Source: a virus
Reading direction: 5' to 3' (one strand)
Length of the DNA stretch: 64,000 nt
IMG/VR virus record: IMGVR_UViG_3300047494_000229
Coordinates: 10,273 to 74,272 of that record
Part shown: one piece after another, positions 1,478 through 49,910 of the stretch
How the letters are laid out: each line of letters opens with the position of its first letter
How positions within the stretch are numbered: position 1 is the stretch's first letter
Notes under the pieces: model-generated
What the model was told of the DNA's origin: nothing
Databases searched by the model: none
The model's input: only the letters and a program-made list of their open reading frames with translations
Program-made: the position numbers and the translations under genes

Positions 1478-2842
1478 ATGAAAATCGGTTACGTCAGAGT
1501 TTCAACAAGAGAGCAGGATGAGGGCAACGCCCTAGAGCAACAGACATCACGGGTCGAAAAGGCTGGTGCTGTTCTTATATTCTCAGATGTTGAGTCTGGG
1601 CGATCCGAAAAAAGGAAAGAATTCAATAAAATGCTTGCTTTATGTAAGCAAGGTAAAATAAATGAAATAATTGTTACGCGTATTGATCGGCTGGGACGTA
1701 GTGTAGTTGGAATCCACAAGGCGATCGCTACCTTTGAACAGCACAAAGTCAAGCTAACAATATTAGATGCCCCAGTCGATCCATCGTCACCGTTTGGCTG
1801 GTTTTCAATTAACCAAATGGCTGGACTAGCAGAATTTGAATCTAGGCTATTGTCCAACAGGATTAAGAATGGGCTAATTTATTTCCGGGAGCAAAAAAAA
1901 GCTTCATCACGTCCGCCTTTTGGATATTGTCGAGTAAATGAAAAATACGAGCCGGACATGAACTTGCACTTGGAAAAAAGCAAATGGGCAATCGCATCTG
2001 AATTTATTGAATATTTTTTAAGTGAAAGCACTACACTCAGAAGCACATCTCAATACATATTAAAAACTTTTGACATTTCATGGACGGCAGCAGGATTAAG
2101 ATATTGGCTACTAAACCCAGTGTTGCAAGGACACACGGTTTATGGTGTTAAAAACAACCTAAGTAACCCGGAGAATTGGGATATTTATGAAAATACTCAT
2201 GAACCTCTAATTGATAAAAATAAACTTAAATTAATACAGAAAAAACTTGAAGAAAATCGACACAAATATAGTTATGGCAATGGTAAAAAAGGGTCTGAAT
2301 TATTACCTTTAGCTGGACAGATTATTTGTGGTGATTGCGGGTATAAGTGCTTTTGTAAAAAATCAAAGTATTTAACTTACAGAATTAGATGCAAAAAGCA
2401 CGAAAATCTAGGAAAAGACTTTTGCAAGAACAGTAACAGCACTTATTTACCAGATGTCATCAAGGCAATAGATAGCGCCTTAATAGAGCGTTACAAGGAA
2501 ATTCAAAAATATATAGCCGATAGTCTAGAGGCGAAGCAACAAGATAGCCTTGATGTGCTTGAAAGAACAGAACAATTAAAAATGCTTAAATCATTACCAA
2601 AAAATTCCATCATTCAAAATGCAATTGATCAAACAATATTAGAAATACAAATCTTAAAGCAAGAAGAAATAACTGTAAAGCAAGTAAATAATGAGTTATT
2701 TGATATTCTTTCTTCTTCTTTTAGTAATATTTGCTACTGGAGTGAAATTGACTGGAAAGACAAGCGGTCGATTTATAAGGAGTTAGTCGCTTACGTAAAA
2801 GTCTTAAATGGAGAAATACTAGAAATCAAGCTACGGGTTTGA
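1478..2842 (+). CDS. Large serine recombinase/integrase, XisF-like
   Basis: GYVRVST catalytic motif, DVESG, RIDRLGR, PPFGY recombinase domain, CGDCG Zn ribbon, C-terminal coiled coil. Confidence 0.93.
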   Translation: MKIGYVRVSTREQDEGNALEQQTSRVEKAGAVLIFSDVESGRSEKRKEFNKMLALCKQGKINEIIVTRIDRLGRSVVGIHKAIATFEQHKVKLTILDAPVDPSSPFGWFSINQMAGLAEFESRLLSNRIKNGLIYFREQKKASSRPPFGYCRVNEKYEPDMNLHLEKSKWAIASEFIEYFLSESTTLRSTSQYILKTFDISWTAAGLRYWLLNPVLQGHTVYGVKNNLSNPENWDIYENTHEPLIDKNKLKLIQKKLEENRHKYSYGNGKKGSELLPLAGQIICGDCGYKCFCKKSKYLTYRIRCKKHENLGKDFCKNSNSTYLPDVIKAIDSALIERYKEIQKYIADSLEAKQQDSLDVLERTEQLKMLKSLPKNSIIQNAIDQTILEIQILKQEEITVKQVNNELFDILSSSFSNICYWSEIDWKDKRSIYKELVAYVKVLNGEILEIKLRV

Positions 2843-19270: not shown

Positions 19271-20341
19271 ATGCAATCGCTTGGGTATCTCATGCAAGTA
19301 TCAACTTTTAAAATTGGCTCCATTGCCTCTGGTATGGGGATGCATCTGCACGGGTTAAAAAAGATTGGTGGGGTTCCCGTGTGGGCGATTGAATGCGATG
19401 AGGCGATCACCCGTTGTTACCAGCAAAACCATCCAGAGTCCCGCATTATTTGTAATAAAGTCCAAGATGTGGCGATTGATGATTTAGAAGATATCGATTG
19501 CCTCACAGTTACACTCAGCTGTAAAAATGCCTCAATTAGTCGAGGTGCTGATTGGGGTGAGACTGAGCAAGATACAGCAGCAGCAACGGCAGCGGCGAAT
19601 ATTCTTCGGGGTAAGCTACCAAAGTTCTTTTTGCTAGAAAATGTCTGGAGATATCGCACATTTGAATCTTTCCGCATTTTCAAGTCTGCACTGGCTGAAT
19701 GCGGCTACTATTTCCGTTACTACAAACTTAATTGCAAAGATTGGGGCGTGGCCCAATCACGCGATCGCCTCTATGGAGTTGGCGTAAGACACGGAGCATT
19801 TTGGGACATCACTGAGCCTTCACTTCCTATCTTGGGATGGTATGAGGCGATCGCTGATATGATTCCAGAATTGCCTCTTGTCAAGCTTGCACCTTGGCAG
19901 ATAAAGAAGTTTCCATGTCTGGACTCTACTTGTTTAATCCCCGACCATTCCAACTGGACAAGCCTTGTTTCTGTTGCTCAACCTGCACTAACGGTAAGAG
20001 CGGGGCATCAATCATTCAAAGCATTGATTAAACACGCTGGGGGCGGTCGGGACAATGATCGCCTCTACCACTCTGACGAACCATCATTTACGATTCGGGC
20101 GCTAGGAAGAAGCGCAGATCACCATTCAAAATTGGCGGATGCGATTATAGGGGATAGAGTCGTTGCAGTCACTCCCCGCGCTTGTCTACGCTTCTTTGGG
20201 GACAAGGAAACAGCAGATAGTATTTGGTTGCCTCCTACCAAGTCACTGGCTATGGAGGTAGTGGGGAATGGGGCATCATGGGTGATGTTTGAGGCATTGG
20301 GGCGATCGCTATTTTCGACCCCAAACTGTCGGGGTACGTAG
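19271..20341 (+). CDS. C5-cytosine DNA methyltransferase, atypical
   Basis: ASGMG (motif I), ENV (VI), QSRDR (VIII), VGNG (X); motif IV reads TLSC rather than PPC. Confidence 0.8.
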   Translation: MQSLGYLMQVSTFKIGSIASGMGMHLHGLKKIGGVPVWAIECDEAITRCYQQNHPESRIICNKVQDVAIDDLEDIDCLTVTLSCKNASISRGADWGETEQDTAAATAAANILRGKLPKFFLLENVWRYRTFESFRIFKSALAECGYYFRYYKLNCKDWGVAQSRDRLYGVGVRHGAFWDITEPSLPILGWYEAIADMIPELPLVKLAPWQIKKFPCLDSTCLIPDHSNWTSLVSVAQPALTVRAGHQSFKALIKHAGGGRDNDRLYHSDEPSFTIRALGRSADHHSKLADAIIGDRVVAVTPRACLRFFGDKETADSIWLPPTKSLAMEVVGNGASWVMFEALGRSLFSTPNCRGT

Positions 20342-22622: not shown

Positions 22623-23141
22623 GTGCTTTATAACCATTACGGCATACCCCAAACACGCGATCGCTCCTATGGCGCAGTCGCAGCCCTCACCTATTGGGTT
22701 TTTAAGTGCAGGGATAGAAGAAAGTCCCCAGCGATGGGGATAAAAACCTGGACTTTCTTGGAATCCAGTATCAGAAATTCGGCAGAGATATCTTCTACTT
22801 TGGAAGATTATTTACAGCGACTTTGTGACAAACTTTTCTCCCAACTCCGTCCAGTGGAGTTGACTAAAATAATTCAGCCACAGCAGCGCATCTTGAGAGT
22901 AAATCTTGATGCAACTGAAATCAAAGAATTGCCAATTGACCAAAACTTAGTTTTTATGGGCTGGCTAGATTTGGTTGCTGATATTGCGCCTCACGGTTTT
23001 AGTGAGTGGGACTTACTTGAGTTATGTCGCACCAAAGCGGGGATAATTCAAGTGCTTTGTCGCCTCAAATTTGAAGAGGATCGGGCATTAAGGATGGATG
23101 AGCCGGAAGATGCTATTGAGGTAGGAGCAATTGAATTATGA
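22623..23141 (+). CDS. cas11: Type IV-B small subunit (Cas11-like)
   Basis: All-helical with W..LESSIRNSA...TLEDYLQRLCDKL; located upstream of csf2. Confidence 0.6.
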   Translation: MLYNHYGIPQTRDRSYGAVAALTYWVFKCRDRRKSPAMGIKTWTFLESSIRNSAEISSTLEDYLQRLCDKLFSQLRPVELTKIIQPQQRILRVNLDATEIKELPIDQNLVFMGWLDLVADIAPHGFSEWDLLELCRTKAGIIQVLCRLKFEEDRALRMDEPEDAIEVGAIEL

Positions 23142-23299
23142 AGGAAATCAAAGAAGTCGCTAGCGCCCTAATTAATTTGCAAGATCACGGTGGTGATTGT
23201 ATGTGCAATATCTGCCAAAAAGACCAACAAACGATTGAGAAAAATCCTGAGATAGCGGAACAACTTACTGTATTGGTGAACAAAAAAATAAATGTTTGA
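23138..23299 (+). CDS. 53-aa HxxxCxCxxC microprotein A (not in ORF track)
   Basis: MKEIKEVASALINLQDHGGDCMCNICQKDQQTIEKNPEIAEQLTVLVNKKINV; GGAG RBS; overlaps both neighbours; paralog at 32004-32171. Confidence 0.85.
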   Translation: MKEIKEVASALINLQDHGGDCMCNICQKDQQTIEKNPEIAEQLTVLVNKKINV

Positions 23300-24431
23300 A
23301 AATTACGACATCTGTGATCGTTGCCGCCTAACTCTCCACTGCGTTTTCACCCCCCAACTTCCTTTGTCTCACATTGGGGAAGTGTCAGGAAATGTCAGCA
23401 ACTTAAAAACAGTGAAGCTGCTTGATTTGGAGGGACAATCAAGACAGTGCTTTGTGTATTCAGGGAACGCCATTCGCAACGGTATTTTGCGGCGGGTTGG
23501 TGTAGCAGCTGCCCTTACAGATTTGGAATTACAAGTCAACCCCGACGTGCATCAAACCATGTTCGCCGGTGGACGAATTGACGGTAGCACCGCATCAGAC
23601 ATGGAGTTAGACAAGAAAATCCGTACCTTTTTGCCGTGGCTTTCAGTGCTGGGAACCGCCAAACCCACAAAAGTATTTGGTTCCAAGGATCCTCAAATGG
23701 TTGCAGGGCGGATTAATGTCGGCTCTGCTCATTTAATCTGTTACGAATCAGCTGCTTACATTTACAATCAAATGCCAGGGATGCTGCCTCCAGAGGCGTT
23801 AGAGGGAATTGGGAAAATATTGGAGGCGCAGAAGGCGATCACCCTTGACCCAATGAGTTTACCAACAGCAGAGGCGATCGCCGCTTACAACGAGGTGAAG
23901 GCACAGTATCTACCATTGCTCCGTAAAGTGCTGCGGACATGGACAGAATTTATCACGGTTGACCAAACTACCCGCCGTGACAGTCTTCTTGACCCCAATT
24001 TAATTAAGTTTCTTCCCCCTGAAGCACAGAATTTATTGAAAGGGGAAGGGGGGAAGGAGAAGAAGTCTGACCAAATGATTGCGGGCGATCGTTTGATTAT
24101 GGCGGGGTCAAAACTTTACTCGCGTTGGGATTTAAACACGACATCCGTGGAAGAAGGTTGGGTGTATGATGCATTACTGAAGTTCGATGAATCTCCGTAC
24201 CTTGGAGGGAAGGGGCAAAGGGGTAACGGGCTTATATCCCTAGATATTTGGTATCAATCGGGTAAAGATTCTGGGATATTGTGCAGCATTGGTAAGCGTG
24301 CAGAGTCGGGGTTGTTGAGCGATAGATTCCAAGAACAGCACGGACGTTACAGAGAGTATATCAATCAATACCGCGAGTTCTTGACGGAAGCAAAAGACTC
24401 CAGCGAGTTAAAAAGTTTGTTAGGAAATTAA
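23292..24431 (+). CDS. csf2: Type IV CRISPR Cas7-like backbone subunit Csf2
   Basis: PLSHIG, SGNAIR.GILRR, FAGG, GRINVG...C.E, TRRD, QMI, Gly-rich loop LGGKGQRGNG. Confidence 0.88.
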   Translation: MFENYDICDRCRLTLHCVFTPQLPLSHIGEVSGNVSNLKTVKLLDLEGQSRQCFVYSGNAIRNGILRRVGVAAALTDLELQVNPDVHQTMFAGGRIDGSTASDMELDKKIRTFLPWLSVLGTAKPTKVFGSKDPQMVAGRINVGSAHLICYESAAYIYNQMPGMLPPEALEGIGKILEAQKAITLDPMSLPTAEAIAAYNEVKAQYLPLLRKVLRTWTEFITVDQTTRRDSLLDPNLIKFLPPEAQNLLKGEGGKEKKSDQMIAGDRLIMAGSKLYSRWDLNTTSVEEGWVYDALLKFDESPYLGGKGQRGNGLISLDIWYQSGKDSGILCSIGKRAESGLLSDRFQEQHGRYREYINQYREFLTEAKDSSELKSLLGN

Positions 24432-24519
24432 TTTGAATTGGTACTTGCCAATTCAAAAACACTTTGCTGCTATTGGTACATACCAAAATAAAAGGGCGGT
24501 AGAGCCCAAAGGATAAAAA

Positions 24520-24633
24520 ATGAAGCTAATCAAAGAAACAGTGAATGGACAAGAGTGGACTAACGGTCACAGGGATTCATGGGTGCAGCTTGCCATCCTG
24601 GAGAAAGGCAAGAAGGCGGTTCTCACTGCATGA
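24520..24633 (+). CDS. 37-aa ORF coupled to csf3
   Basis: MKLIKETVNGQEWTNGHRDSWVQLAILEKGKKAVLTA; AAGGA RBS; ATGA overlap with csf3. Confidence 0.4.
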   Translation: MKLIKETVNGQEWTNGHRDSWVQLAILEKGKKAVLTA

Positions 24634-25352
24634 AACCATTGAAAATAACTGCCGTAATGGGAAGTGCGATCGCCTGCTACGACTCCTATTCTCCAAGTTT
24701 AGATTCGCTCCTTGAGTGGCTAATACTGGATAAATTAAACCTCACTTCTCCCAATCCCACACCGGAACAAGTAGAAGCGACGCGCCCCATAGTTGACCGA
24801 GAGATGCCATTAGCCAAAGGCGAAGTTATGGGTGAATGGTATTGGCAGGTTTCTTCACCCTGCTACCGCATTGTGAGCGAATATACAGATAGATACCGCA
24901 AGCGCTGGCAGCCAGGAATTGACAGTCCTCCTCCAGCGTGGGGAAAACGTAAGGCTAAATGGTCAACTTCTGAAGGGGCAGAGAAGAATTACGATCTGCC
25001 TTTATATTGTCGTAATACTCCGGCAATTAATTGGTATGCGGTGGGGGATAGGGAGGCGATCGCCCAACTCCTACAAAACTGTACCCATATTGGCAAGAAG
25101 CGATCTTATGGCAATGGACAGGTTTTGCGATGGCAAGTTGAACCAATAAAAGAAGACTGGCATCTGTGGCGTGATGATAAACTTATGCGTCCTATGCCAT
25201 ACAGGTTGTTATATTCAGATCCGCGAATTTTGCAAAATGAACCTGTAATGATGAATTGGGGATGGCGTCCGCCTGCGTGGTTGCCTAGCAATAAAGAAGT
25301 GTGTGTAATGCCAAAGGGGAGTGTATGCCACTTAACTACGGCACAGGTTTGA
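24630..25352 (+). CDS. csf3: Type IV CRISPR Cas5-like subunit Csf3 (likely start MKPLKITA at 24630)
   Basis: PLKITA, LDSLL, WYAVGD, IGKKRSYGNGQV, RP.P, RPPAW. Confidence 0.88.
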   Translation: MKPLKITAVMGSAIACYDSYSPSLDSLLEWLILDKLNLTSPNPTPEQVEATRPIVDREMPLAKGEVMGEWYWQVSSPCYRIVSEYTDRYRKRWQPGIDSPPPAWGKRKAKWSTSEGAEKNYDLPLYCRNTPAINWYAVGDREAIAQLLQNCTHIGKKRSYGNGQVLRWQVEPIKEDWHLWRDDKLMRPMPYRLLYSDPRILQNEPVMMNWGWRPPAWLPSNKEVCVMPKGSVCHLTTAQV

Positions 25353-26074
25353 CCGCGCCTTGGATGAAGAAAAAAGTAGATAGGGCGATCGCTTGTATTG
25401 AAGACTGGGTAAGTAAGTGTGATCGCCTCTGCTATACCTCAACTAGTGGTGGCAAGGATTCCTTGGTAACTGCTCACCTCATCCGCCACGTTTACCCTAG
25501 CTGCCCAATGGTGTGGATCAATCAAGGGCATTTAGCAGAGTGGCCTGACTGCATTGAACTATTGCAGTTTTTAAAAACTCAGGGATGGAACATCGTTGAA
25601 CTATGTCCAGTGCGCGATTTGTGGCATTTGTACCTCGACTTGGGCATTCCATTGGAAGGGAAAATGGACACCAAAGCAGATAAAATAATAAACCAACGGT
25701 TAATGTACGACCCGTTGGAAGAGTACCAAGAGCTTAACAATATCAAGGGTTACGCTTGGGGTATTCGTAAAGATGAAAGTCGCAACCGCGCTTTTTACTT
25801 GCGGAAGTGGGGAGAATTACACCAACTGAAAAACGGACTGTGGTGTTGTTCGCCTGTGGCATTTTGGACGGTACAAGATATCTGGCTATATATTGACCAG
25901 CAGAAATTGCCTTATCCTGCCATGTATGACCGCGATCGCCTCACCATCCGCAACGGGCCACCCATTGGTACAACCGGGGTAAACTGGGGGCGGTTGGCGG
26001 AACTCAGAAAACACCACCCTGATTTGTGGCAGCAGTTTGTAGAGAAATTTCCAGAGGTGCGAGATTATGGCTGA
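25325..26074 (+). CDS. cysH: CysH-like PAPS reductase family protein associated with type IV-B
   Basis: SGGKDS PP-loop, GIRKDESRNR, P...WT..DIW.YI....LPY. Confidence 0.88.
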   Translation: MPLNYGTGLTAPWMKKKVDRAIACIEDWVSKCDRLCYTSTSGGKDSLVTAHLIRHVYPSCPMVWINQGHLAEWPDCIELLQFLKTQGWNIVELCPVRDLWHLYLDLGIPLEGKMDTKADKIINQRLMYDPLEEYQELNNIKGYAWGIRKDESRNRAFYLRKWGELHQLKNGLWCCSPVAFWTVQDIWLYIDQQKLPYPAMYDRDRLTIRNGPPIGTTGVNWGRLAELRKHHPDLWQQFVEKFPEVRDYG

Positions 26075-26723
26075 TTTGTGTTACCTCTGCGGAAAACCTG
26101 CAACCAAACCACTAGAACTCAAGGATAGTTTCACCAGCCATTCTCAATGCCGCATCCCCACATCAAATAAGATGTGCGATCGGTGTCACTCAACAATTGC
26201 CGGCGACCAAAAACAACTCTGGTACTGGAACGAGGGTAAAAATAAGTGGAGCAAATTGTGGGGGCGATCGCTCTCCCGAATTTATCAAGGCGATAAACTA
26301 CTCGCTCCCGTGATTGAAGGGGAAAAGGAAGGTTTGCCAATAGTCAAAAACCTGCTTACCCGTGTTGAACTTCGCGGTTTTTTACTTAATCCCCCACAAC
26401 CGCCATTTACTATAGCGATCGCCGAGTCAGGGCAGAAGCATATTCTGCCGTGGGCACAAGAGGCGTTAAACCGTGTCATTTTCCCAGTACAATTCGAGCT
26501 TGATACTGTGTATATAGTTTACGCCCAATTTACTGTGCTACTGGGCTTTTATGAGCAGATGATGACGCTGGGATTTTCAAAAACTGAGATTGACACTGGG
26601 GATTATCGGAGCGACAGATTGATGCAAAATCTAGAAATTTGGGAGCCACTGGAAGAGGTGATCGCCCCGATGCGTGGAACGAGATTGTTACAGTTAATTT
26701 CTTTTGTGGGACAAATTCAGTGA
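26067..26723 (+). CDS. csf1: Type IV CRISPR Cas8-like subunit Csf1
   Basis: CYLCG...CDRC Zn finger; LLNPPQPPF.IAIAESGQKH. Confidence 0.85.
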   Translation: MADLCYLCGKPATKPLELKDSFTSHSQCRIPTSNKMCDRCHSTIAGDQKQLWYWNEGKNKWSKLWGRSLSRIYQGDKLLAPVIEGEKEGLPIVKNLLTRVELRGFLLNPPQPPFTIAIAESGQKHILPWAQEALNRVIFPVQFELDTVYIVYAQFTVLLGFYEQMMTLGFSKTEIDTGDYRSDRLMQNLEIWEPLEEVIAPMRGTRLLQLISFVGQIQ

Positions 26724-27529
26724 AACCCTACAAACTGCCTAAAGGTTATTTGAATTTCCAACAATTCAATAACCACTTGAGTCAAATACAATTAGTTAAA
26801 CCCAAACCTATTAATGTTTTGGGAATGCCAGAGGTAGCAAATAATCTATCCCATATCTATAGTAAATGGTCACAGGGATACCCTTTATACTGCGTCAGAC
26901 CTAATCTACTAGAAGAGATGTTAGAAACCGATGTTGGCGAAAATCTAGCACTATTTACTGACATCAATTTAGCAATCCCATCTTATGTTTTGTTTTTACC
27001 TCAATATCAGATTAAATCCCCTTGCGGTAAGGGTTGTATTGATTATCTGGTTATCAATCATGAAGAGTTAGATTTGCCAGAACATAAACACGCGATCGCT
27101 TGGGGCGGTGTTGATTCCAATGATGGATTGTTCTTAGCGTACAAGCGAATTCGCAGGGATGGAACCTTACAGCGATCGCGCTTTGGGACTGAGGATAAAG
27201 AACAACAAGAACAGTCTTTATTACTCAGAAATATAGCATTGCAATCAGTTCTTCTGCTGCAATACTATCCAGAAATTGAAGAGCAAATTACCATTGTGCC
27301 TGGGAAAGAAAAGGGATTTGGTGGGAATAAATTAGAATCCCCTTTTCTACTCCCTCGCTGGTTAGGGAAAGAATCAAAATCGTCGCCAAGCTCAAGCACC
27401 GGTAAAAGTGGTGCATCTAAAGCTACGCATTTTCGGCGGGGGCACTGGAGGGCGCAGCCATGCGGAAAAGGTAGGGCAGAAACAAAAATAACCTGGGTAC
27501 GCCCTGCATGGGTAGCTGGCAACAATTAG
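26720..27529 (+). CDS. Conserved phage protein (likely GTG start at 26720)
   Basis: C-terminal HFRRGHWRxQPCG...WVRPxWV motif. Confidence 0.65.
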   Translation: MKPYKLPKGYLNFQQFNNHLSQIQLVKPKPINVLGMPEVANNLSHIYSKWSQGYPLYCVRPNLLEEMLETDVGENLALFTDINLAIPSYVLFLPQYQIKSPCGKGCIDYLVINHEELDLPEHKHAIAWGGVDSNDGLFLAYKRIRRDGTLQRSRFGTEDKEQQEQSLLLRNIALQSVLLLQYYPEIEEQITIVPGKEKGFGGNKLESPFLLPRWLGKESKSSPSSSTGKSGASKATHFRRGHWRAQPCGKGRAETKITWVRPAWVAGNN

Positions 27530-27542
27530 AGCCACTTTGGAA

Positions 27543-27654
27543 TACCCGACTTCTGCAAGAAGTCGGGTAAAGGGTAAAGGAAAATTCTATCCTTTTCCCC
27601 TTTAACCTTTCCCCCTTTCCCTACAAGAGTACAAAAGGTACTTTTGCACTCTTG
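27543..27654. repeat. Cluster of hairpins and STRR-type repeats closing the type IV operon
   Basis: TACCCGACTTCT-GCA-AGAAGTCGGGTA; AAAGG/CCTTT tracts; imperfect IR ACAAGAGTACAAAAGGTACTTTTGCACTCTTGT. Confidence 0.6.
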
Positions 27655-27802
27655 TCTACTCATCCTCCCTACTTCCCGTAAAAATTATTGGGTAAGGGGT
27701 TGACATTTACCCGTCACTTACCCGATACTATTTACATACGAGGGCGATGGCGATCGCCTTCCAAACAATTGAAAAACCAAAAGTGAAATATAGGAGAAAA
27801 AC

Positions 27803-28519
27803 ATGATTGAGTCAATTTTGAAACTTGCTAACTTCGGATTTGTAAAACCATTTACAGCATTAATAGAGCAAAGATGCCAAGGCAGTATGCTTGATGTGAT
27901 TGATGGAGTTCTAGAATTTGATTTGTCCTTGATAGACAGACAAGAAATAGATAGCTCCTACAAGATTGAAAACACAGTAAAATTAGTCGCACACCAAACC
28001 AAGTGGTTAAAATCAAAATATTTATCTTGGTATCCAATGATGGATGCTCGGCATCCTGGTAAAGGATTTGATGAAAAGCCACCAATAGAATTGGTGGAAA
28101 AAATTAATCAAATTGACGCGCTTCTTGACATAGCAAGAGCCAAGAAACTTGAACTGCTTCTCCCAACACTCGATAACAATACGCCTGATCCATCCAGAGA
28201 AGAAAGAGTGTATATCTGTAAAGTTGTGGTTAATGATGGGCGCACTGGAGAGGCAATTTATACACCATTGAGATACTCGCTAGAACCTTCTTGCATAGAT
28301 ATCAGATATCTAGAAGAAGTAATTTACAAAGTGCCCTACTATTGGCATGGCAAGTCTGGTTTTTCTGAAATCTACTATTCAGATAAAGAAGTAGTAGAAG
28401 TGGTGGCGATAGATCCATCATTTGAAGGATTAGACCCGCTAGTCTATGGCGGCTGGCAACTGGACAAGGTATTTACTAAAAAAGCCTCCCTCAACAGAGA
28501 GGGGTATAAAGAATACTAA
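27803..28519 (+). CDS. Hypothetical phage protein
   Basis: AGGAG RBS; TTGACA at 27700 upstream. Confidence 0.6.
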   Translation: MIESILKLANFGFVKPFTALIEQRCQGSMLDVIDGVLEFDLSLIDRQEIDSSYKIENTVKLVAHQTKWLKSKYLSWYPMMDARHPGKGFDEKPPIELVEKINQIDALLDIARAKKLELLLPTLDNNTPDPSREERVYICKVVVNDGRTGEAIYTPLRYSLEPSCIDIRYLEEVIYKVPYYWHGKSGFSEIYYSDKEVVEVVAIDPSFEGLDPLVYGGWQLDKVFTKKASLNREGYKEY

Positions 28520-28575
28520 CTCTCACCCTGTAACATTGCGATCGCCAAAAGCGTGATGCCGCTTCATCGAATGAA

Positions 28576-28863
28576 GTGCGATCGCCTGCCACAGGGCAAC
28601 TTAAAATCAAAGCAATGAAGTTCCTTATTTGTAATCATCAAACCCCTGAACAAGTAGCCCAGATGTTGAGGGAGGGAAGGGCAGAAGAAGCGATCGCGCT
28701 TATCCGCCAAACCTACTTCTATAAATCCCCGTATTGTCCAAAATGCGGGGGGAAAATGCGAAAAGACAACAAAACTGGCATTTGCTCAAGATGCCAGAAA
28801 AATAAATTACCTAATTCAAAATACCGGAGGAAAGACCTGCCGGAGAATGAGTTGAGCAACTAG
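28576..28863 (+). CDS. Zn-ribbon protein
   Basis: CPKCG...CSRC. Confidence 0.55.
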   Translation: MRSPATGQLKIKAMKFLICNHQTPEQVAQMLREGRAEEAIALIRQTYFYKSPYCPKCGGKMRKDNKTGICSRCQKNKLPNSKYRRKDLPENELSN

Positions 28864-29007
28864 ATTTGCTTTTTCGGGGTGTAGCCGAATGGAATTTTGG
28901 AAGTTAAAAATACTTAAAGCTACGAGAAATCGTAGCTTTTCACTTTTGGTATCAATGCTGAGGGCGATCGCCTCCCCACTCCGGTAACATAAAATTTTAC
29001 TTTCATT

Positions 29008-29241
29008 ATGAAACCTGAAACCATCCAAGCTATTACTCCTTTGTTCTTGGGGGCGATCGGGGGAGTTTTGGGACTTGCTGTAATTCTCTCGCCACATATC
29101 AGTGATGCAAAGTGGGCAGCAGGTTTTGGACTGGCAGGAACCGCGATCGCTGGGGCTTCTGGTTTAGCTCAAAATAGAAACGCTGAGTCTGCCAACATCC
29201 AAGGAAGTAGCGTTTCTATTGAAAACAAAACTGAAGATTAG
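29008..29241 (+). CDS. Small two-TM membrane protein (holin-like)
   Basis: Two hydrophobic segments and a polar tail. Confidence 0.55.
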   Translation: MKPETIQAITPLFLGAIGGVLGLAVILSPHISDAKWAAGFGLAGTAIAGASGLAQNRNAESANIQGSSVSIENKTED

Positions 29242-29325
29242 CTATCAATTAACAGCTTGCTTTCCATCGCCAAATAGCTCAAGAAAGGAATAAAAATCTT
29301 TGTAATTCGTCGTTTAATAAAAAAG

Positions 29326-29733
29326 TTGAGCGCACGAATTCCTATGAAATTTATTTTATCTGTTTGTCTAACTGAAGATGTTCCAGCTATTAATTACATT
29401 CTTGAAAAGAGTACTTACGTATTAGGGCGGCACTCTAGCTGCGACATTCTAATTCTCGATCGGTTCCTCTCAAGGTATCACTGTACCTTGATTCTGATGG
29501 AACCAAGTAGTACTTGCAAACAGCCTTGTTACATAATCTATGATGGGCTGCTTCTATCGCAAGAGCGAAGTCGAAACGGGATTTGGGTAAATGGAGAAAG
29601 GGTAAAGGTGTTGCGGGAATTAAACCATCAAGACGTAATTACTTTTGGCTCTCAGAGTTTCCCCAAAGCAATTTTCATAATAGATTCTATTGACAAAGAC
29701 AAGGGGACTATCCCGAATGAATTTGAAAATTAG
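29326..29733 (+). CDS. FHA domain protein
   Basis: LGRHSSCDI, SRYHC, SRNGIWVNG, DVITFG. Confidence 0.88.
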   Translation: MSARIPMKFILSVCLTEDVPAINYILEKSTYVLGRHSSCDILILDRFLSRYHCTLILMEPSSTCKQPCYIIYDGLLLSQERSRNGIWVNGERVKVLRELNHQDVITFGSQSFPKAIFIIDSIDKDKGTIPNEFEN

Positions 29734-30187
29734 CAATAAACAAAAATATTTAATATTGACAGTTCTGATTGTGATGGGGGCGATCGCCTGTCTCCAACTA
29801 AACATCAAAATATCCGGTGATTGGGTGGCGATCGCCGGACTGCTATTTGCACTTTGGCAAATTGTGATTGCCATTAATGGGGCTGAGGAAGGGCGAATTG
29901 ATAAATTGCGGGAGGCGATCGCTAAACTGGAAGAAGCTTCTCTTAAGCGCGATTTTTATCACGATCAAGTACTTTCTCAAATCCAGAGGGAGTTGGTGAT
30001 GCTGACTACTCAGTTTGAACATCATCAACAAGCGCACGGACACAAGGGTTTGATTGAGGAAACGCTGAGAATAAAAGATGAGCTTGCTAGACTTGGGGCA
30101 GGTTTGGCAGGGTTGGCGCGATCAGCTGAGACAGTCCGAAGGTTGGAGAGACTTGAAGAAAAAATCAATGCGCTGCAAAATCCGTGA
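29690..30187 (+). CDS. Membrane protein with C-terminal coiled coil
   Basis: Two TM segments followed by a heptad-rich tail. Confidence 0.6.
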   Translation: MTKTRGLSRMNLKISNKQKYLILTVLIVMGAIACLQLNIKISGDWVAIAGLLFALWQIVIAINGAEEGRIDKLREAIAKLEEASLKRDFYHDQVLSQIQRELVMLTTQFEHHQQAHGHKGLIEETLRIKDELARLGAGLAGLARSAETVRRLERLEEKINALQNP

Positions 30188-30259
30188 TTTTGCTCAGGTC
30201 ATGAGGGCGATCGCGTGTCTAGTATAGCAGCGACATGATTTTGGGTAATGGGTAAAAAT

Positions 30260-30418
30260 ATGCACATCAATGTTTCTACTATTCGCCAAGCTTTTCAGCT
30301 AGCTGCCACTTTTATTCTGGATATCGAAACACTTTTTGGTGGTTCGGCTCCTGCACCTAGTGGCAACCTGCAAGCGCCAGAAGCATCGGCTAGCGCTAGT
30401 TCAACTGCCGCTCAGTAA
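30260..30418 (+). CDS. 52-aa Ala/Ser-rich protein
   Basis: Manual translation MHINVSTIRQAFQLAATFILDIETLFGGSAPAPSG...AAQ. Confidence 0.35.
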   Translation: MHINVSTIRQAFQLAATFILDIETLFGGSAPAPSGNLQAPEASASASSTAAQ

Positions 30419-30608
30419 TCCTTAATCCTTGTTGATGGGCGATCGCTGCTAGGCGTTCTATGTCATTAGCGATCGCCACTCCTACTTGTGCAGAAGTGAT
30501 TGGCAAGATTTCTATAGCCAAAATCTTCGTATTCTACCCACCTGATAGATTTGCTTTTAAGGACTTTTTCTCTAGGTAGTAGAGACTTTTCAGTTAATAA
30601 GCTATAAA

Positions 30609-31505
30609 CTACATTCTTCTTTGAATTGCGGCATTAATCACTTCTTGACTACTAGAAGAACTGGTGATGTTTGCCAAATTCAGGAATAAGTTTACTTTAT
30701 CCCTAGCCTGCTCAAATGTTAGTCTTGGCGGATTATTGATCACCAACTTGACTAAATCTGAGTACCAGTATCGGGGCGATCGCAAAGTCAACCCCGCATC
30801 AATAACTTTCTCGCGCCACCCATCTTCGGGCAGGATTTCTTGGTCTTCTTTCCCCAAATACCAATGTTTGCTAACTTGGGGCATCCAAGACCCCATATTC
30901 GCATCACAATACCTTAACCCTTTCACATCCATGAAATCATATCCCATCGCCTTGATTTCTCTAAGAAACGACAATTCAGAAACCCCAGCAATATAAGGAT
31001 GGCAGATGGGAAGAGTTAAAACTCCGTAGTCCTTTGCCAACTGCAAAGTTTTGAGGTGCTGTTTAACCGTAAACCGTTCAATAGGCGGTTCATTTCCAGT
31101 GATGCCCAAGACAAGGGCAAAATTGGGAATTTTGGCAAGCCTCGACATAATGCGATCACTAATTGTCCATTTGCTGACACAAGTAATGAGCTTGGCGATA
31201 GGCGAAACTTTCTCAACCCAATGCCACAAATACTCATCAAGTACTGGGAAAAATGGATCTGTGATGGCTGTGAATCCAACGATATCCCCAGCCAGGATAC
31301 CCCACGGAAAACTATAAAAACGTTCTTGCTCTTGGGGATTGTCCTTAATGAAGGGAGAAACATTAACAAAGCTACAAGCCTTGTTAATGCCCGCAATTGG
31401 GTTCTTATTCCACACCTCCCGACGGGTGTCATGCTCTGTTATAAAGCAATATTTGCAAGCCACGGGGCAAGCAGATTTGCCGACTTCAAAACGGAAGGAT
31501 TGCAT
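30609..31505 (-). CDS. Radical SAM protein, SPL/photolyase-like fold
   Basis: CPVACKYCF (CX3CX2C), TDPF, SKW, P.IAG. Confidence 0.85.
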   Translation of the reverse strand: MQSFRFEVGKSACPVACKYCFITEHDTRREVWNKNPIAGINKACSFVNVSPFIKDNPQEQERFYSFPWGILAGDIVGFTAITDPFFPVLDEYLWHWVEKVSPIAKLITCVSKWTISDRIMSRLAKIPNFALVLGITGNEPPIERFTVKQHLKTLQLAKDYGVLTLPICHPYIAGVSELSFLREIKAMGYDFMDVKGLRYCDANMGSWMPQVSKHWYLGKEDQEILPEDGWREKVIDAGLTLRSPRYWYSDLVKLVINNPPRLTFEQARDKVNLFLNLANITSSSSSQEVINAAIQRRM

Positions 31506-32007
31506 CTAATATCTCCGAAAATACTGAATCTTGATCAAGTTCACCATTGATGGTGATTAATTTGTTTTTTTGTTGCCAAAACTCTAGTAACGGAGGAAGG
31601 CGATCGCTCTCTAGCAATAGTCTTTCCGCGCTACTTAGTTCATCTCCTCTAGCTCGAATTTGACAACGTAATACTGCAATATTTGGGGAAATTTTAAGAT
31701 AGATAACAAAATCTACCTCTTGAACGACTTTGGCTTGATTGATATTGCGAGGAAAGCCATCGATTATCCAAGAATTTTTAGCACATATTGGCTTGGCTAT
31801 TTCAATGGCGATCGCGTCTGGCAACGGAAGCCAAGTTTTACTATCGCCCCAATACGAACTAATTCTTTGGCTGAGTTCGGTTTTATTTTGAAATTCCGCT
31901 CTCACTAAATCCCCCATACTATAATGGAGGACTGTATAAAACTCAGATAGATTCTTACCCTGAGTGCTTTTTCCAGCACTGGGAAGACCTAAGAGAACTA
32001 TCTTCAT
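31486..32007 (-). CDS. Adenylate kinase-like nucleoside monophosphate kinase
   Basis: GLPSAGKSTQ P-loop, SMGDLVR, IIDGFPRNINQA. Confidence 0.88.
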   Translation of the reverse strand: MKIVLLGLPSAGKSTQGKNLSEFYTVLHYSMGDLVRAEFQNKTELSQRISSYWGDSKTWLPLPDAIAIEIAKPICAKNSWIIDGFPRNINQAKVVQEVDFVIYLKISPNIAVLRCQIRARGDELSSAERLLLESDRLPPLLEFWQQKNKLITINGELDQDSVFSEILDAILPF

Positions 32008-32171
32008 TTGTTTTTTGTAGTTAAACTAGCAACGGCGCTAGCGACCTCTGGATTTTTTGAAATCGTTTCCTTGTCTCCCTGACATTGACTACATCCGCAA
32101 TCAGCACCGTGATCTTGCACGTTTGCGATCGCTTCACAAACCTGCTTAATTTGATTAACTTCTTTTGACAT
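32004..32171 (-). CDS. 55-aa HxxxCxCxxC microprotein B (not in ORF track)
   Basis: MSKEVNQIKQVCEAIANVQDHGADCGCSQCQGDKETISKNPEVASAVASLTTKNK; GGAG RBS; ATGA overlap with the kinase. Confidence 0.85.
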   Translation of the reverse strand: MSKEVNQIKQVCEAIANVQDHGADCGCSQCQGDKETISKNPEVASAVASLTTKNK

Positions 32172-33366
32172 TAGCTATCTCCAAAATTTGTACAGGACTC
32201 ATACCCACTGTTACTTGTAGTTCGGGAGGCAAGACATCCTGAAACATCGACAAAAAACAGTAGGCGCATTTTAAGCATTTATTCTTAGGGATATACTCAC
32301 TCCAAACCATCCAGCTATTGACTGCATATAAATCATTGGCTAGCCCAAAGCGCGGGTGTAGCCGAATGTTAGAATTTTCACCTGGTGGAATTGCGGGGTC
32401 TGTTGCTAGCATTCCCCCGGTGATAAACCGAGCAAAGCTCATCTCGCCCCAAGAGGGCATTTTGTTATCCCAAGTGCGAATATTGATGTAAGGCATCCCC
32501 ATGTCGGGAGCTTTTGGGCAGTTTGTGCAGCACAAGCTACACTGCGATCGCACTTCTACCGCGCATTTTTGATATCTTTCTGATGCTGTATGCACTTCAA
32601 CTTGAAAGCCCAAATAACGCAGCAATTCCACACTATGCGGAACTGGCTGCACAAATTGAGCAGTTCCTGCACAAGAATCAGAAATAGGACAAGAATTGCA
32701 ATCAACAAAGTTTGGCGCGTTGTAATACGGCGAGAGCGATCGCTTTTTTTCTGACAACGCCGTAACCGCGCACTGGGTTCTAGTCCAATATGGGACTTTT
32801 AGCCATTGGGCTAATTCCCGCATATATCCTGATGTTGCCTGCGGGGTAATTTTGAGTGTTCGCATCCACTCTTGGTTGTCAGGTGCAGAGATACCCTGCA
32901 TCCCAGCGTCTCTAACAACTTGTTCATCACCACGGAAGCCACTTGAGACAACCGCGTGGCATCCCGCATCAACCGAACGTGTAAACATCTCTTTGATAAC
33001 CCGTGGATCATCGTTGAGAGTGTGAATAATTGGGCGAATATAGGCGATCGCCTTTGCTCCCGACTCACGCGCAGCACTCAAAGTCTTGTACCTTGATTCA
33101 GTTGGTGCTGGCTCCATCTCCTTGGGAAGGTGGGAGATGGAAGCAAATACAAACAAGTTTAAATTAGCTGCCCAATATTTCAAGCGCTCTCGCCACCAAG
33201 GGCTAGACAAATCGCCTTTGGTAATCAGGGCAACTGGCCCCGTATGGTGATCGCTCACCAATTGATTCAATTTAGCTGCTGTACTTTCCCTCAAAATAGA
33301 GGGATCAGCCAAATTATTTACACTGACGGGCAAATCTCTGAGCAATCTTAGCCATTCTTCCTGCAT
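32155..33366 (-). CDS. Radical SAM-like Fe-S protein, apparently circularly permuted
   Basis: SPL-like core (LADP, ITKG, SIS...EP...R..TL, RPII...ND) with no N-terminal Cys triad; CLKCAYCF near the C-terminus; extra Cys clusters. Confidence 0.65.
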   Translation of the reverse strand: MQEEWLRLLRDLPVSVNNLADPSILRESTAAKLNQLVSDHHTGPVALITKGDLSSPWWRERLKYWAANLNLFVFASISHLPKEMEPAPTESRYKTLSAARESGAKAIAYIRPIIHTLNDDPRVIKEMFTRSVDAGCHAVVSSGFRGDEQVVRDAGMQGISAPDNQEWMRTLKITPQATSGYMRELAQWLKVPYWTRTQCAVTALSEKKRSLSPYYNAPNFVDCNSCPISDSCAGTAQFVQPVPHSVELLRYLGFQVEVHTASERYQKCAVEVRSQCSLCCTNCPKAPDMGMPYINIRTWDNKMPSWGEMSFARFITGGMLATDPAIPPGENSNIRLHPRFGLANDLYAVNSWMVWSEYIPKNKCLKCAYCFLSMFQDVLPPELQVTVGMSPVQILEIANVKRS

Positions 33367-33815
33367 AATTTAAAAGACTCCTTTGGATATACAAGACAAT
33401 GTGGGTCGCTGAAGGGGATGAACGGATTGTGCAGGCTCTCAACCACCAATCCCTCATTCCCTGATTTAAATGTGTGGAGTATCCCCCTTGGCATCCACAC
33501 CCGGATACCGGGATGGAGAGGATAATGCAGAATATTTTTGTCTCTATAACAGACAAACTCGCCACTACCTTCAAGGACAGTTACTCTGCGATCGCTCTTG
33601 GGATGAGTGTGGAGGCGATTATCTTCTGTCGATTCCGGGGGGAATCGGACAATTAGCTGGCCCAACTCTCCCCACACTGCCTTGATTAGCAGGGCTTCCA
33701 TGTATTCTTCGTAGGCTACCCAATCGCCTTGAGGGATTGGCGCACAAGAAAGTTCAACTTTTTCAACGCCGCCACGCTTCCAATTTTGACGGCATTGTTC
33801 AGCAAAATTAATCAA
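33348..33815 (-). CDS. Cupin domain protein
   Basis: LHTHP...VTVLEGSG and MPRGILHTF. Confidence 0.85.
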   Translation of the reverse strand: MINFAEQCRQNWKRGGVEKVELSCAPIPQGDWVAYEEYMEALLIKAVWGELGQLIVRFPPESTEDNRLHTHPKSDRRVTVLEGSGEFVCYRDKNILHYPLHPGIRVWMPRGILHTFKSGNEGLVVESLHNPFIPFSDPHCLVYPKESFKLCRKNG

Positions 33816-47577: not shown

Positions 47578-47973
47578 TTAACTACGCTCCGCGATAGAAA
47601 TTGAAATATGAGCCACTTGATTTGGTACTGATTGCAAAGGATCAAAATAGCATGGTAATCCAAATAATCCAACGGCTCTCACAGTTTTAACTGTTAAAGC
47701 TTGGGCAAATAGCTTTTCGCCCGACAGCAGAATTAACTTATTAAGTTGAGGGGAATAAACATCTTGATAATTGGCAGGGATTTGTTTTCCCGGAATTAAC
47801 GTAATAAAAGTATTATCAGTTTTTTGTCTACTTAAAAATATTTGAATTGCTTGTGCTACTACTGGAGAAATGGTAACAAGTAATGCGATCGCCGTTGCTC
47901 CTGTAGGTACTTGGTAGATTTGAGTTCGAGTGTTATTGATTGGAAGCGAAACGCTGTTTAAGTTTGTTGGCAT
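47578..47973 (-). CDS. Putative tail fibre-associated protein
   Basis: IYQVPTG...KLILLSGEKL pattern. Confidence 0.55.
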   Translation of the reverse strand: MPTNLNSVSLPINNTRTQIYQVPTGATAIALLVTISPVVAQAIQIFLSRQKTDNTFITLIPGKQIPANYQDVYSPQLNKLILLSGEKLFAQALTVKTVRAVGLFGLPCYFDPLQSVPNQVAHISISIAERS

Positions 47974-49910
47974 TAGCTAAATATTAAAGCATTAATAAAA
48001 CTATCTTCCTGCGATTCAATGTAAACATTCTTATCAAATATAGCCGCAAAGTTACCAGTAAACTCAAATATGCAAGGTGGTGATGCGTGGGAAATGCTAG
48101 TTATTTCATTCCCATCATAAACAAAACTATAAGCCACACGGTAGCTAGTGGACGGAAAATTACCTGTAATTGCAGAGGCGATCGCTCCTGTCAAGGGTGA
48201 AAACAACGAAAAATCGCTATCAGCAGTAGGAAGCGTAGCAACTACACCTGTTGTCCAATTAGAAATAGTAAATTGTTGTGTAGTATTTGGTACAACAGTA
48301 AAGCCGGAGAACTTGCGGATCTCTAGGGTATCTTGTCGTTGCAGATAAATATTAACGCCAAAGGGGTTGAACGAGCCTTTGCTATTATTGGCGATTACGT
48401 CTGGGTAGTCAGCGCGGATGGTTCCTGTTCCAGTCGCCGTACAAGGATAGGAAAGAGTTAGGGTGACTCCGTTGGTGATGGCAACATAGCTACTCCATGC
48501 GCCTGCTAGACTTTCACCAGATACCGTAGAGACGATTGCCCTAATCGCTTCACTCGCTGATGGGGTGTAAGTAGATGGTTCCGTGAATACCGCCGCGTTG
48601 CCGTTGATAATAACTTGCTGTCCTGCGGTGTTGGCTTGCAATCCCCCAAAAGCCCGTTGGGGCATTAGGGGGAAGTCGTAAGAACCAACTAACGCGTAAC
48701 CAGCTAAAACATAGTAGCTCAACCCAACGTTCGGGGCTACACGATACCAGTCCGCCTCACCATACACAACCCCAGCAGGTATCAGTTTCCCTAGCGGATT
48801 GTAATCACCGGATTGAGCGCGGGTAACTGGGTATGCCCCAAAGATTGAATTGGGCGTAACTTCATTATTGAGTTCGGCTACGGAGAAGAACGGTTTAATT
48901 GCCAGGGAGATCGCCTCCCCTGGCTGCAAATCATCAGAGGTGATAAACGGGGCTGTTAGCCTTGGTGTCCACGGGAAAAATGCTCCAAAATTCTGAAAAT
49001 CCCTGCCACTACTATCTTGGGTTCTCACACTCCCATCGGTTCCGACAAAACCAATAAATTTGACCAGAACTAAGCCACTGAGCAAATCAGGGCTGCGCTG
49101 GTTATTGTATTCAAGTTCAATGCCGAATTGCGTCCCTGATGGTAGCGCGTTTGGTAAATCATTATAAATCCAATACTGTGCCTCCCAACTGGGAAGAAAC
49201 TTACTCAGGGTTTCGCCTGGGTATTTTGGGGTGGGGACTGTGGTAACAGGATTAATTGCAGCGATAGGGCGATCGCTCCCAACTCCCGTACTGGTATCAC
49301 TCACATAAGTTGATGCGCCGCCAATTCGCACCCACCTACCAAGTGGGTATGGAAGGATTTGGGGTACATCCGAAGGCAAAATAACATCTGGGCTAGCACT
49401 TGGCGGACTCGGATCTCGATCCGAGTCGGCACGATATTCAAACCATTTTGAGGTGCTAGTTGCCCATCGTACCTGCCCATCTAGCCTGTCTCCGCCTGTG
49501 GGAAAACTCGTTAAATCGGCGACTGAGGGAGCCAAGGATAAATGAGAATCCCTGCTCAGTGCTAGTGTGGTTGGAAGGACGGTTTGCACCGATTGTGGTT
49601 GAATCCCTGTTCCGTATTGATAGGCTGGAACACGGGCGATTTGGACATGGGTGGAAGGGTCATTTGTTGCCCCCGCCGAAATCATGAAATACCGGACATC
49701 CCACCCCGCAGGCATTGTTGGGATGGTTATGGTGATTTGTTGATTGGTGGTGTAGGCGATCGCCTCTGATACCGCAGGGATGTTAAATCCGGCGCGGTTT
49801 TGTAATTGGAATGAGAAATATAAGCTGCCTGCGGTGAGGTTTCCACCACTAGTTACCGCTATTCCAAATTGTGGGCAAGTTTGACCAACTCCGGCGTATT
49901 GTGCAAGCAT
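47973..49910 (-). CDS. Putative tail fibre/baseplate protein
   Basis: 645 aa, Gly/Thr/Ser-rich; ends NALIFS. Confidence 0.6.
   Translation of the reverse strand: MLAQYAGVGQTCPQFGIAVTSGGNLTAGSLYFSFQLQNRAGFNIPAVSEAIAYTTNQQITITIPTMPAGWDVRYFMISAGATNDPSTHVQIARVPAYQYGTGIQPQSVQTVLPTTLALSRDSHLSLAPSVADLTSFPTGGDRLDGQVRWATSTSKWFEYRADSDRDPSPPSASPDVILPSDVPQILPYPLGRWVRIGGASTYVSDTSTGVGSDRPIAAINPVTTVPTPKYPGETLSKFLPSWEAQYWIYNDLPNALPSGTQFGIELEYNNQRSPDLLSGLVLVKFIGFVGTDGSVRTQDSSGRDFQNFGAFFPWTPRLTAPFITSDDLQPGEAISLAIKPFFSVAELNNEVTPNSIFGAYPVTRAQSGDYNPLGKLIPAGVVYGEADWYRVAPNVGLSYYVLAGYALVGSYDFPLMPQRAFGGLQANTAGQQVIINGNAAVFTEPSTYTPSASEAIRAIVSTVSGESLAGAWSSYVAITNGVTLTLSYPCTATGTGTIRADYPDVIANNSKGSFNPFGVNIYLQRQDTLEIRKFSGFTVVPNTTQQFTISNWTTGVVATLPTADSDFSLFSPLTGAIASAITGNFPSTSYRVAYSFVYDGNEITSISHASPPCIFEFTGNFAAIFDKNVYIESQEDSFINALIFS

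Follow-up and report, generated by a model that had tools for sequence, protein, structure and literature searches.

Paralogous HCCC microproteins embedded in a type IV-B csf operon and a second operon of a phage accessory region

The 64,000-nucleotide stretch of DNA analysed here (the window; bases 10273-74272 of the 74,272-base IMG/VR virus record IMGVR_UViG_3300047494_000229, which is ~69% complete) carries on its plus strand a type IV-B csf module with a CysH-like gene and, on its minus strand, an operon that includes genes for a Cys-rich protein (P0004), an adenylate kinase and a putative radical S-adenosylmethionine (SAM) protein (P0029). Each of these operons holds one copy of a microprotein gene, P0001 between cas11 and csf2 and P0002 between the P0004 and kinase genes, the two copies lying ~9 kb apart (Table 1). 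An earlier note on this DNA, made from the letters alone, had described both open reading frames (ORFs) and had proposed that they couple the two enzyme sets; both ORFs are present at the positions and on the strands that it gave. Since csf1, csf2, csf3, cas11 and a cysH-like gene are all found, and since there is no CRISPR array and there are no array-like repeats across the whole 74-kb record, we assign the module to type IV-B, in line with the note's description of an array-less system with CysH. These assignments come from PADLOC, NCBIfam and Pfam, with the NCBIfam matches for csf1, csf2 and csf3 falling under their curated cut-offs. The scan for cas1, cas2 and cas6, which covered ORFs in the surroundings of the module, gave no match.

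Both microprotein genes are interlocked with their neighbours, and the ribosome-binding sites and overlaps described earlier are seen for each. The start of P0001 forms an ATGA overlap with the cas11 stop, with AGGAG 10 nt upstream, and the last 8 nt of the gene are shared with the start of csf2. P0002 begins inside the P0004 gene, whose end it overlaps by 17 nt, with GGAG 7 nt upstream, and its stop forms an ATGA overlap with the adenylate kinase start. A BLASTP alignment of the two proteins contains 24/47 identities with no gaps (E 2e-18), a resemblance well above what chance would give; the hand count of 22/37 in the earlier note is correct over the shorter segment used there. Between the paralogues, the non-synonymous and synonymous measures of divergence were pN 0.34 and pS 0.77, synonymous sites being saturated at this value; the pair are old copies under purifying selection, evidence for which the note had asked. 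Contigs from RNA libraries that are identical to the window cover four genes in part (cas11, csf2, cysH-like and P0029); among the listed pieces none lies over the P0001 or P0002 gene, and the depth table is empty over P0002, with DNA carry-over possible for these libraries. The evidence supports P0001 and P0002 as real, conserved and translationally coupled microproteins.

P0001 and P0002 define a new, rare and previously unannotated family of ~55-aa phage proteins. In a profile search of 1.84 billion representatives, we identified ~18 further clusters of 44-89 aa, to which a second search added two, most members deriving from ENA or Logan assemblies. The invariant positions of the family alignment are A10, H17, C21, C23 and C26, with N36 close to invariant, and the ligand set of one His and three Cys (HCCC), spaced H-x3-C-x-C-x2-C, is present in 18/18 members. 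Further conserved positions are V7, I11, L14, D16, G18, D20, S/T24, D29, I33, P37, L43 and L46, position 24 being Ser or Thr in most members and Asn in P0001. P0003, which is 84% identical to P0001, keeps all ligands and ends in ...KNV. Family members had no match in Pfam, PHROG, NCBIfam or the PDB sequence families, and 0/18 matched zf-HC2 at E up to 10. One 89-aa member from an ENA contig, P0010, has a basic N-terminal extension that starts KKRGRP, followed by a strand-helix pattern and fused to the HCCC domain; this extension may be a hint of DNA binding.

A structural model was generated from the family alignment using AlphaFold2 (predicted local distance difference test, pLDDT, 90.5). It consists of a three-helix bundle (helices at 2-17, 24-35 and 37-51) in which His17 closes helix 1, Cys26 opens helix 2 and the turn between these helices contains Cys21 and Cys23, all four ligands being placed at a single turn. 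In this model the His and three Cys most likely form a structural metal site, most simply for zinc. The earlier proposal of a zinc-binding peptide is thus supported as far as the invariant ligands and their placement are concerned, the zinc itself being inferred. Fold searches with the model (PDB, BFVD and a wide VIA library) returned generic helical-bundle neighbours only, none above background; the best of them, not significant, was the PupR anti-sigma cytoplasmic domain (Z 6.1, root-mean-square deviation 2.6 Å over 51 residues), and for helical bundles a Z below ~13 is uninformative. An ESM Atlas search with the microprotein gave no usable match, and a search for longer, fused forms found none, which is weak evidence.

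A tblastn search of phages and plasmids with P0002 and P0007 (a family member described below) gave only a motif match at E 0.9 in cyanophage P-RSM1 and an irrelevant tape-measure match. The P-RSM1 hit, CPPG_00126 (L099:2956-3603), is a 215-aa low-complexity hypothetical protein with NHGEDCDCKKCES near its N-terminus; this segment has the H-G-x-D-C-x-C-x-x-C spacing of the microproteins, homology being unproven at that E value. A related-locus search with the microprotein in viral and metagenome contigs confirmed nothing, and degenerate DNA motif patterns produced chance matches (12 in viral contigs, 66 in genome contigs and 2 in metagenome contigs), the one true context coming from a second viral scan described below.

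The cas11/csf2 junction was compared with that of 14 related phage csf loci, whose Csf2 proteins are 64-68% identical to that of the window. In 14/14 of these loci the cas11 stop directly overlaps the csf2 start (AATGTTTGA). DNA alignment shows that the window instead carries an insertion of ~158 bp at this point, which holds nearly the whole microprotein gene. The relatives' Cas11 proteins end in ...EVEVTNV and that of the window in ...EVGAIEL, while the former cas11 end, AAT GTT TGA (Asn-Val-stop), now terminates P0001 (...KKINV). These differences indicate that the insertion severed the last codons of cas11, which the microprotein now uses as its own. A contig ~95% identical to the window from another sequencing run (X2) spans cas11, the microprotein gene and csf2; together with P0003, it argues that the insertion is real, is no assembly artefact and is common to close relatives only. 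No family member was found within 8 kb of csf in any of the 14 related loci (0/14), nor in the whole records that could be searched (0/5, including a complete 95-kb genome with terminal repeats). The microprotein is therefore not a conserved part of these type IV-B loci, as a core component would be.

Table 1 Features of the window, with positions counted from its first base
Feature	Position	Strand	Basis
Serine integrase	1478-2842	+	encoded in window
cas11, type IV small subunit; C-terminus altered by insertion	22623..23141	+	PADLOC typeIV_Cas11 3e-6
~158-bp insertion relative to 14 related csf loci; holds nearly whole microprotein gene	23132..23289	+	DNA alignment
Microprotein P0001, 53 aa, HCCC three-helix family, cas11/csf2 interval	23138..23299	+	ORF, BLASTP, profile search, AlphaFold2 model
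csf2, type IV Cas7	23292..24431	+	PADLOC Cas7 1e-29; NCBIfam
csf3, type IV Cas5	24579..25352	+	PADLOC Cas5 2e-47; NCBIfam
cysH-like, PAPS-reductase family	25301..26074	+	Pfam PAPS_reduct 1.2e-14, above cut-off
csf1, type IV Cas8-like large subunit	26067..26723	+	PADLOC Cas8 3e-24; NCBIfam
P0029, 298-aa protein, N-terminal CX3CX2C	30609..31505	-	sub-threshold Pfam Radical_SAM match
Adenylate/nucleoside monophosphate (NMP) kinase	31486..32007	-	Pfam ADK 5e-20
Variable slot between P0004 and P0029; microprotein and kinase in window	31506..32180	-	alignment with L097
Microprotein P0002, 55 aa, P0001 paralogue, between 403-aa Cys-rich gene and adenylate kinase	32004..32171	-	ORF, BLASTP
P0004, 403-aa Cys-rich protein	32155..33366	-	conserved CX2CX5C, CX7CX2CCX2C, C-terminal CX2CX2C
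Cupin-domain gene, first of minus-strand operon	33348..33815	-	cupin domain
Structural-region protein	47973-49910	-	57% identity to Nodularia siphophage proteins

A similar picture emerges for P0002. The single retrieved relative of the minus-strand operon (L097) contains, in the same order, a cupin gene, a P0004 homologue (76% identity), a 62-aa ORF that is unrelated, and a P0029 homologue (52%); the microprotein and the adenylate kinase are both missing from it. The 62-aa ORF lies in ~230 bp of unrelated sequence. Homology between the window and L097 breaks off where P0004 finishes and starts again in the opening codons of P0029; the intervening space is a replaceable slot, filled in the window by the microprotein and kinase genes.

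The enzymes on either side of this slot had been described as radical SAM proteins that form an operon with an NMP kinase. The kinase assignment holds, while that of radical SAM is weak for P0029 and unproven for P0004. P0029 contains the motif CPVACKYC (CX3CX2C), conserved in L097, and its match to Pfam Radical_SAM covers the motif only (E 0.027, 15 bits against a cut-off of 29.5); sequence and profile searches of the PDB with this protein gave no match. On this sub-threshold footing, P0029 is a probable radical SAM enzyme. P0004, proposed earlier to be a circularly permuted radical SAM enzyme, has a partial match to the radical SAM model NF038135 (E 2e-3, 17 bits against a cut-off of 430); its sequence contains no CX3CX2C motif and has a C-terminal CX2CX2C instead, and it remains without a family assignment, with one relative in IMG/VR. 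A profile search of the PDB with P0004 was empty, its single-sequence structure model (pLDDT 35) was unusable, and there was no detectable relationship between P0004 and P0029 (hhalign not significant).

The family also occurs independently of this locus. In a second motif scan of viral contigs, we found a member (P0007/P0025) on a 135,938-base viral record (G006, locus L102; 78% complete), where it is a stand-alone, single-copy gene flanked by genes for a tail sheath protein and a DUF4263-like nuclease. Searches of this record for homologues of csf3 and P0029 found neither. Taken with the absences from related loci, and with one independent context to judge from, this comes close to what the earlier note had named as speaking against its proposal, a scatter of homologues with no enrichment beside csf or radical SAM genes.

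This myovirus-like IMG/VR record also encodes a solo Cas1 homologue ~2 kb from the microprotein gene (L102:11250-12221, minus strand; Pfam Cas_Cas1 2e-11, PADLOC Cas1d 1e-15), with a DUF4263/SduA-like nuclease gene close to it (L102:9390-9869, minus strand). No array-like repeats were seen in the 14-kb L102 locus.

The family, its conservation and predicted fold, the insertion and the absence of the gene from relatives of both modules are the observations that any explanation has to accommodate. We lean towards a reading in which P0001 and P0002 are mobile accessory microgenes, co-expressed with, but not integral to, the type IV-B module and the Fe-S/kinase operon. They would be two old paralogues of a rare phage family, each a three-helix bundle in which one His and three Cys clamp the turn that joins helices 1 and 2, and their genes would travel as cargo among variable gene-junction slots of the phage accessory region. 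One copy would have been inserted precisely into the overlapping cas11/csf2 junction, and the other, together with the adenylate kinase, would occupy a replaceable slot between two Fe-S-type genes, each borrowing the transcription of its host operon and being translationally coupled to its neighbours. At a guess, the microprotein might act as a small modulator by binding another protein of phage or host. Because both operons occur without microproteins in relatives, the genes are best seen as inserted accessory genes that imply no link between the two systems. The proposed coupling of type IV-B to the radical SAM operon is not supported, given the absence of the gene from 14/14 csf loci and from L097 and the presence of a family member in G006, where neither csf3 nor a P0029 homologue was found.

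Several points weigh against the view that these are accessory cargo. An independent genomic context was retrieved for one family member only, that in G006. The family is very rare, yet two diverged copies lie 9 kb apart, both tightly embedded in operons, which could reflect an operon-tied function in this lineage. The metal of the account is a predicted one, and any binding partner is hypothetical. Finally, the related csf operons are mosaic, identity to the window being ~78% for Cas11, 47% for Csf3 and 28% for the CysH-like protein, so that the module of the window may differ functionally from those that lack the microprotein.

The best-surviving alternative is that each paralogue is a facultative adaptor or regulatory subunit, which binds a protein of its own operon and modulates or bridges such activities, as in the earlier note's proposal, while relatives do without; candidate partners would be Cas11, Csf2 or the CysH-like protein for P0001, and P0004, the kinase or P0029 for P0002. 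We regard this as unlikely, if worth keeping in view. It would account for the translational coupling of both copies to both neighbours, for the presence of such a rare family twice within one accessory region and for the retention of the insertion in at least two sampled relatives (P0003 and run X2), and small three-helix domains often bind proteins, even if the fold matches found here are themselves not significant. Such coupling, however, is ordinary throughout this compact genome, where start/stop overlaps between genes are the norm. None of the 14 related csf loci has the microprotein, nor does the P0004/P0029 locus of L097, G006 yielded a family member but neither module, and no homologous candidate partner is common to both operons. 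A complex prediction for Cas11, Csf2 and P0001 scored 0.00 ('no answer') and weighs neither way on binding.

A related proposal, which we consider rather improbable, is that the HCCC microproteins are plug-in metal-binding subunits that, in this phage lineage, dock on the Csf/CysH-like machinery and on the Fe-S enzyme/kinase pathway, serving a shared function in cofactor handling or targeting.

Alternatively, the 3Cys+1His site could be a persulfide carrier or could bind iron or an Fe-S cluster, the latter perhaps shared by two subunits of a dimer, in which case the microproteins would supply electrons or sulfur to the CysH-like enzyme of the ATP-pyrophosphatase family and to the Fe-S/radical SAM-type enzymes. 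The invariant His and three Cys, with conserved Asp at 16, 20 and 29 around them, would suit such a carrier, as would the fact that both neighbourhoods hold enzyme families that need a reductant or sulfur donor (PAPS reductase; P0029 with CX3CX2C and the Cys-rich P0004). NEET proteins ligate 2Fe-2S clusters through three Cys and one His. A helix-turn-helix junction with four ligands in a span of 10 residues is nevertheless typical of a structural zinc site, and no similarity was found to known ferredoxin, rubredoxin or NEET families. Related modules work without the microprotein, and the G006 record yielded a homologue but neither type of enzyme. A carrier role is a long shot.

A small zinc-dependent regulator, anti-sigma-like or DNA-binding and acting regardless of its neighbours on the transcription of host or phage, is very improbable, being suggested by weak resemblances only. 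The H-x3-C at the end of a helix recalls zinc anti-sigma (ZAS) and TAZ-type HCCC sites, the best (non-significant) structural neighbour is the PupR domain and P0010 has its basic extension. Against these, the zf-HC2 search was negative throughout and no other family was matched consistently, the ZAS spacing H-x3-C-x2-C is not kept, with mostly Ser or Thr (Asn in P0001) at position 24, and the PupR match falls in the uninformative range of Z for helical bundles. Lastly, the suggestion that the microprotein is a ribosomally synthesized and post-translationally modified peptide precursor, modified at Cys by adjacent radical SAM-type enzymes, draws on a short Cys-containing peptide adjoining Cys-rich P0004 and P0029 with its CX3CX2C, and is extremely unlikely in view of the confidently predicted fold and of a pairing that is not conserved: the entire chain is predicted to form a helical bundle, conservation runs along it and includes hydrophobic core positions with no split into leader and variable core, P0001, being in the csf operon, has no radical SAM gene beside it, L097 has the enzyme relatives without such a peptide and the G006 homologue has no P0029-type neighbour.

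The wider record was taken to derive from a phage of a filamentous cyanobacterium, and the contents of the window agree with this. It encodes a serine integrase, a head maturation protease and the structural-region protein related to those of Nodularia siphophages, and its full DNA is contained in a moss-metagenome run, which may be its source; these features fit a temperate phage of a moss-associated filamentous cyanobacterium. The accessory region shared by the csf module also includes a C5 cytosine DNA methylase gene (19271-20341, plus strand) on one flank and a gene for an FHA-domain protein (29326-29733, plus strand) on the other.

The csf operon varies at a further point. In a contig of run X2 (~95% identical to the window), 1133 other letters replace the 165-bp csf2/csf3 spacer (24462-24626), and a relative, L086, has ~1.5 kb of extra genes between csf2 and csf3; the csf2/csf3 junction is thus a second variable slot of this operon. 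In a contig from run X3 (<90% identical to the window), position 24970 is joined directly to 26508, omitting the 3' part of csf3, the entire cysH-like gene and most of csf1, and this may represent a deleted type IV-B variant in a relative.

The function of type IV-B systems is unsettled, so that a true new subunit would matter; the evidence points away from that. Should the plug-in subunit reading prove true, the microprotein would be the first accessory factor of, and a possible functional handle on, these systems. What the locus does offer is a clean, datable case in which a microgene was spliced into a phage-borne CRISPR-type operon at a junction of overlapping genes, together with a family of 55-aa phage proteins that is new, rare and probably stabilised by zinc, and that escapes both standard gene calling and every family library. 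It also serves as a caution that adjacency in mosaic phage accessory regions is poor ground for inferring a functional link. The family is new but small, and comparative genomics lends no support to the proposed link of one system to the other.

Compared with known systems, the csf module resembles type IV-B modules with a CysH-like gene in being array-less and in its set of cas11, csf2, csf3, cysH-like and csf1, and differs from them in the 53-aa gene that interrupts the cas11/csf2 junction. Earlier work has described type IV systems of phages and prophages as well as a IV-B system carried by a virus, and the IV-B composition given in these two papers includes no such microprotein (PMC10848311; PMC8175902). 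The microproteins, for their part, are like radical SAM maturase/precursor pairs such as SCIFF in that a short Cys-containing ORF lies beside Cys-rich Fe-S-type enzymes, and are unlike them in being predicted to fold, in a pairing that is not kept in relatives and in having one copy in a CRISPR-type operon. In TAZ HCCC and ZAS H-x3-C-x2-C zinc sites, His ends a helix and Cys residues lie in the loop and at the start of the next helix. The microprotein model suggests a similar His/Cys clamp of a helical bundle, which differs in its H-x3-C-x-C-x2-C spacing, in having no significant sequence or fold match and in its much smaller size (~50 aa). The microprotein genes are also like phage morons, as small genes that one lineage has and its relatives lack at the corresponding junction, and that sit in variable slots and would be expressed from the surrounding operon. 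Whereas classical morons carry their own promoter and terminator, the genes described here are spliced in with overlapping stop and start codons and are present as two diverged copies in one genome.

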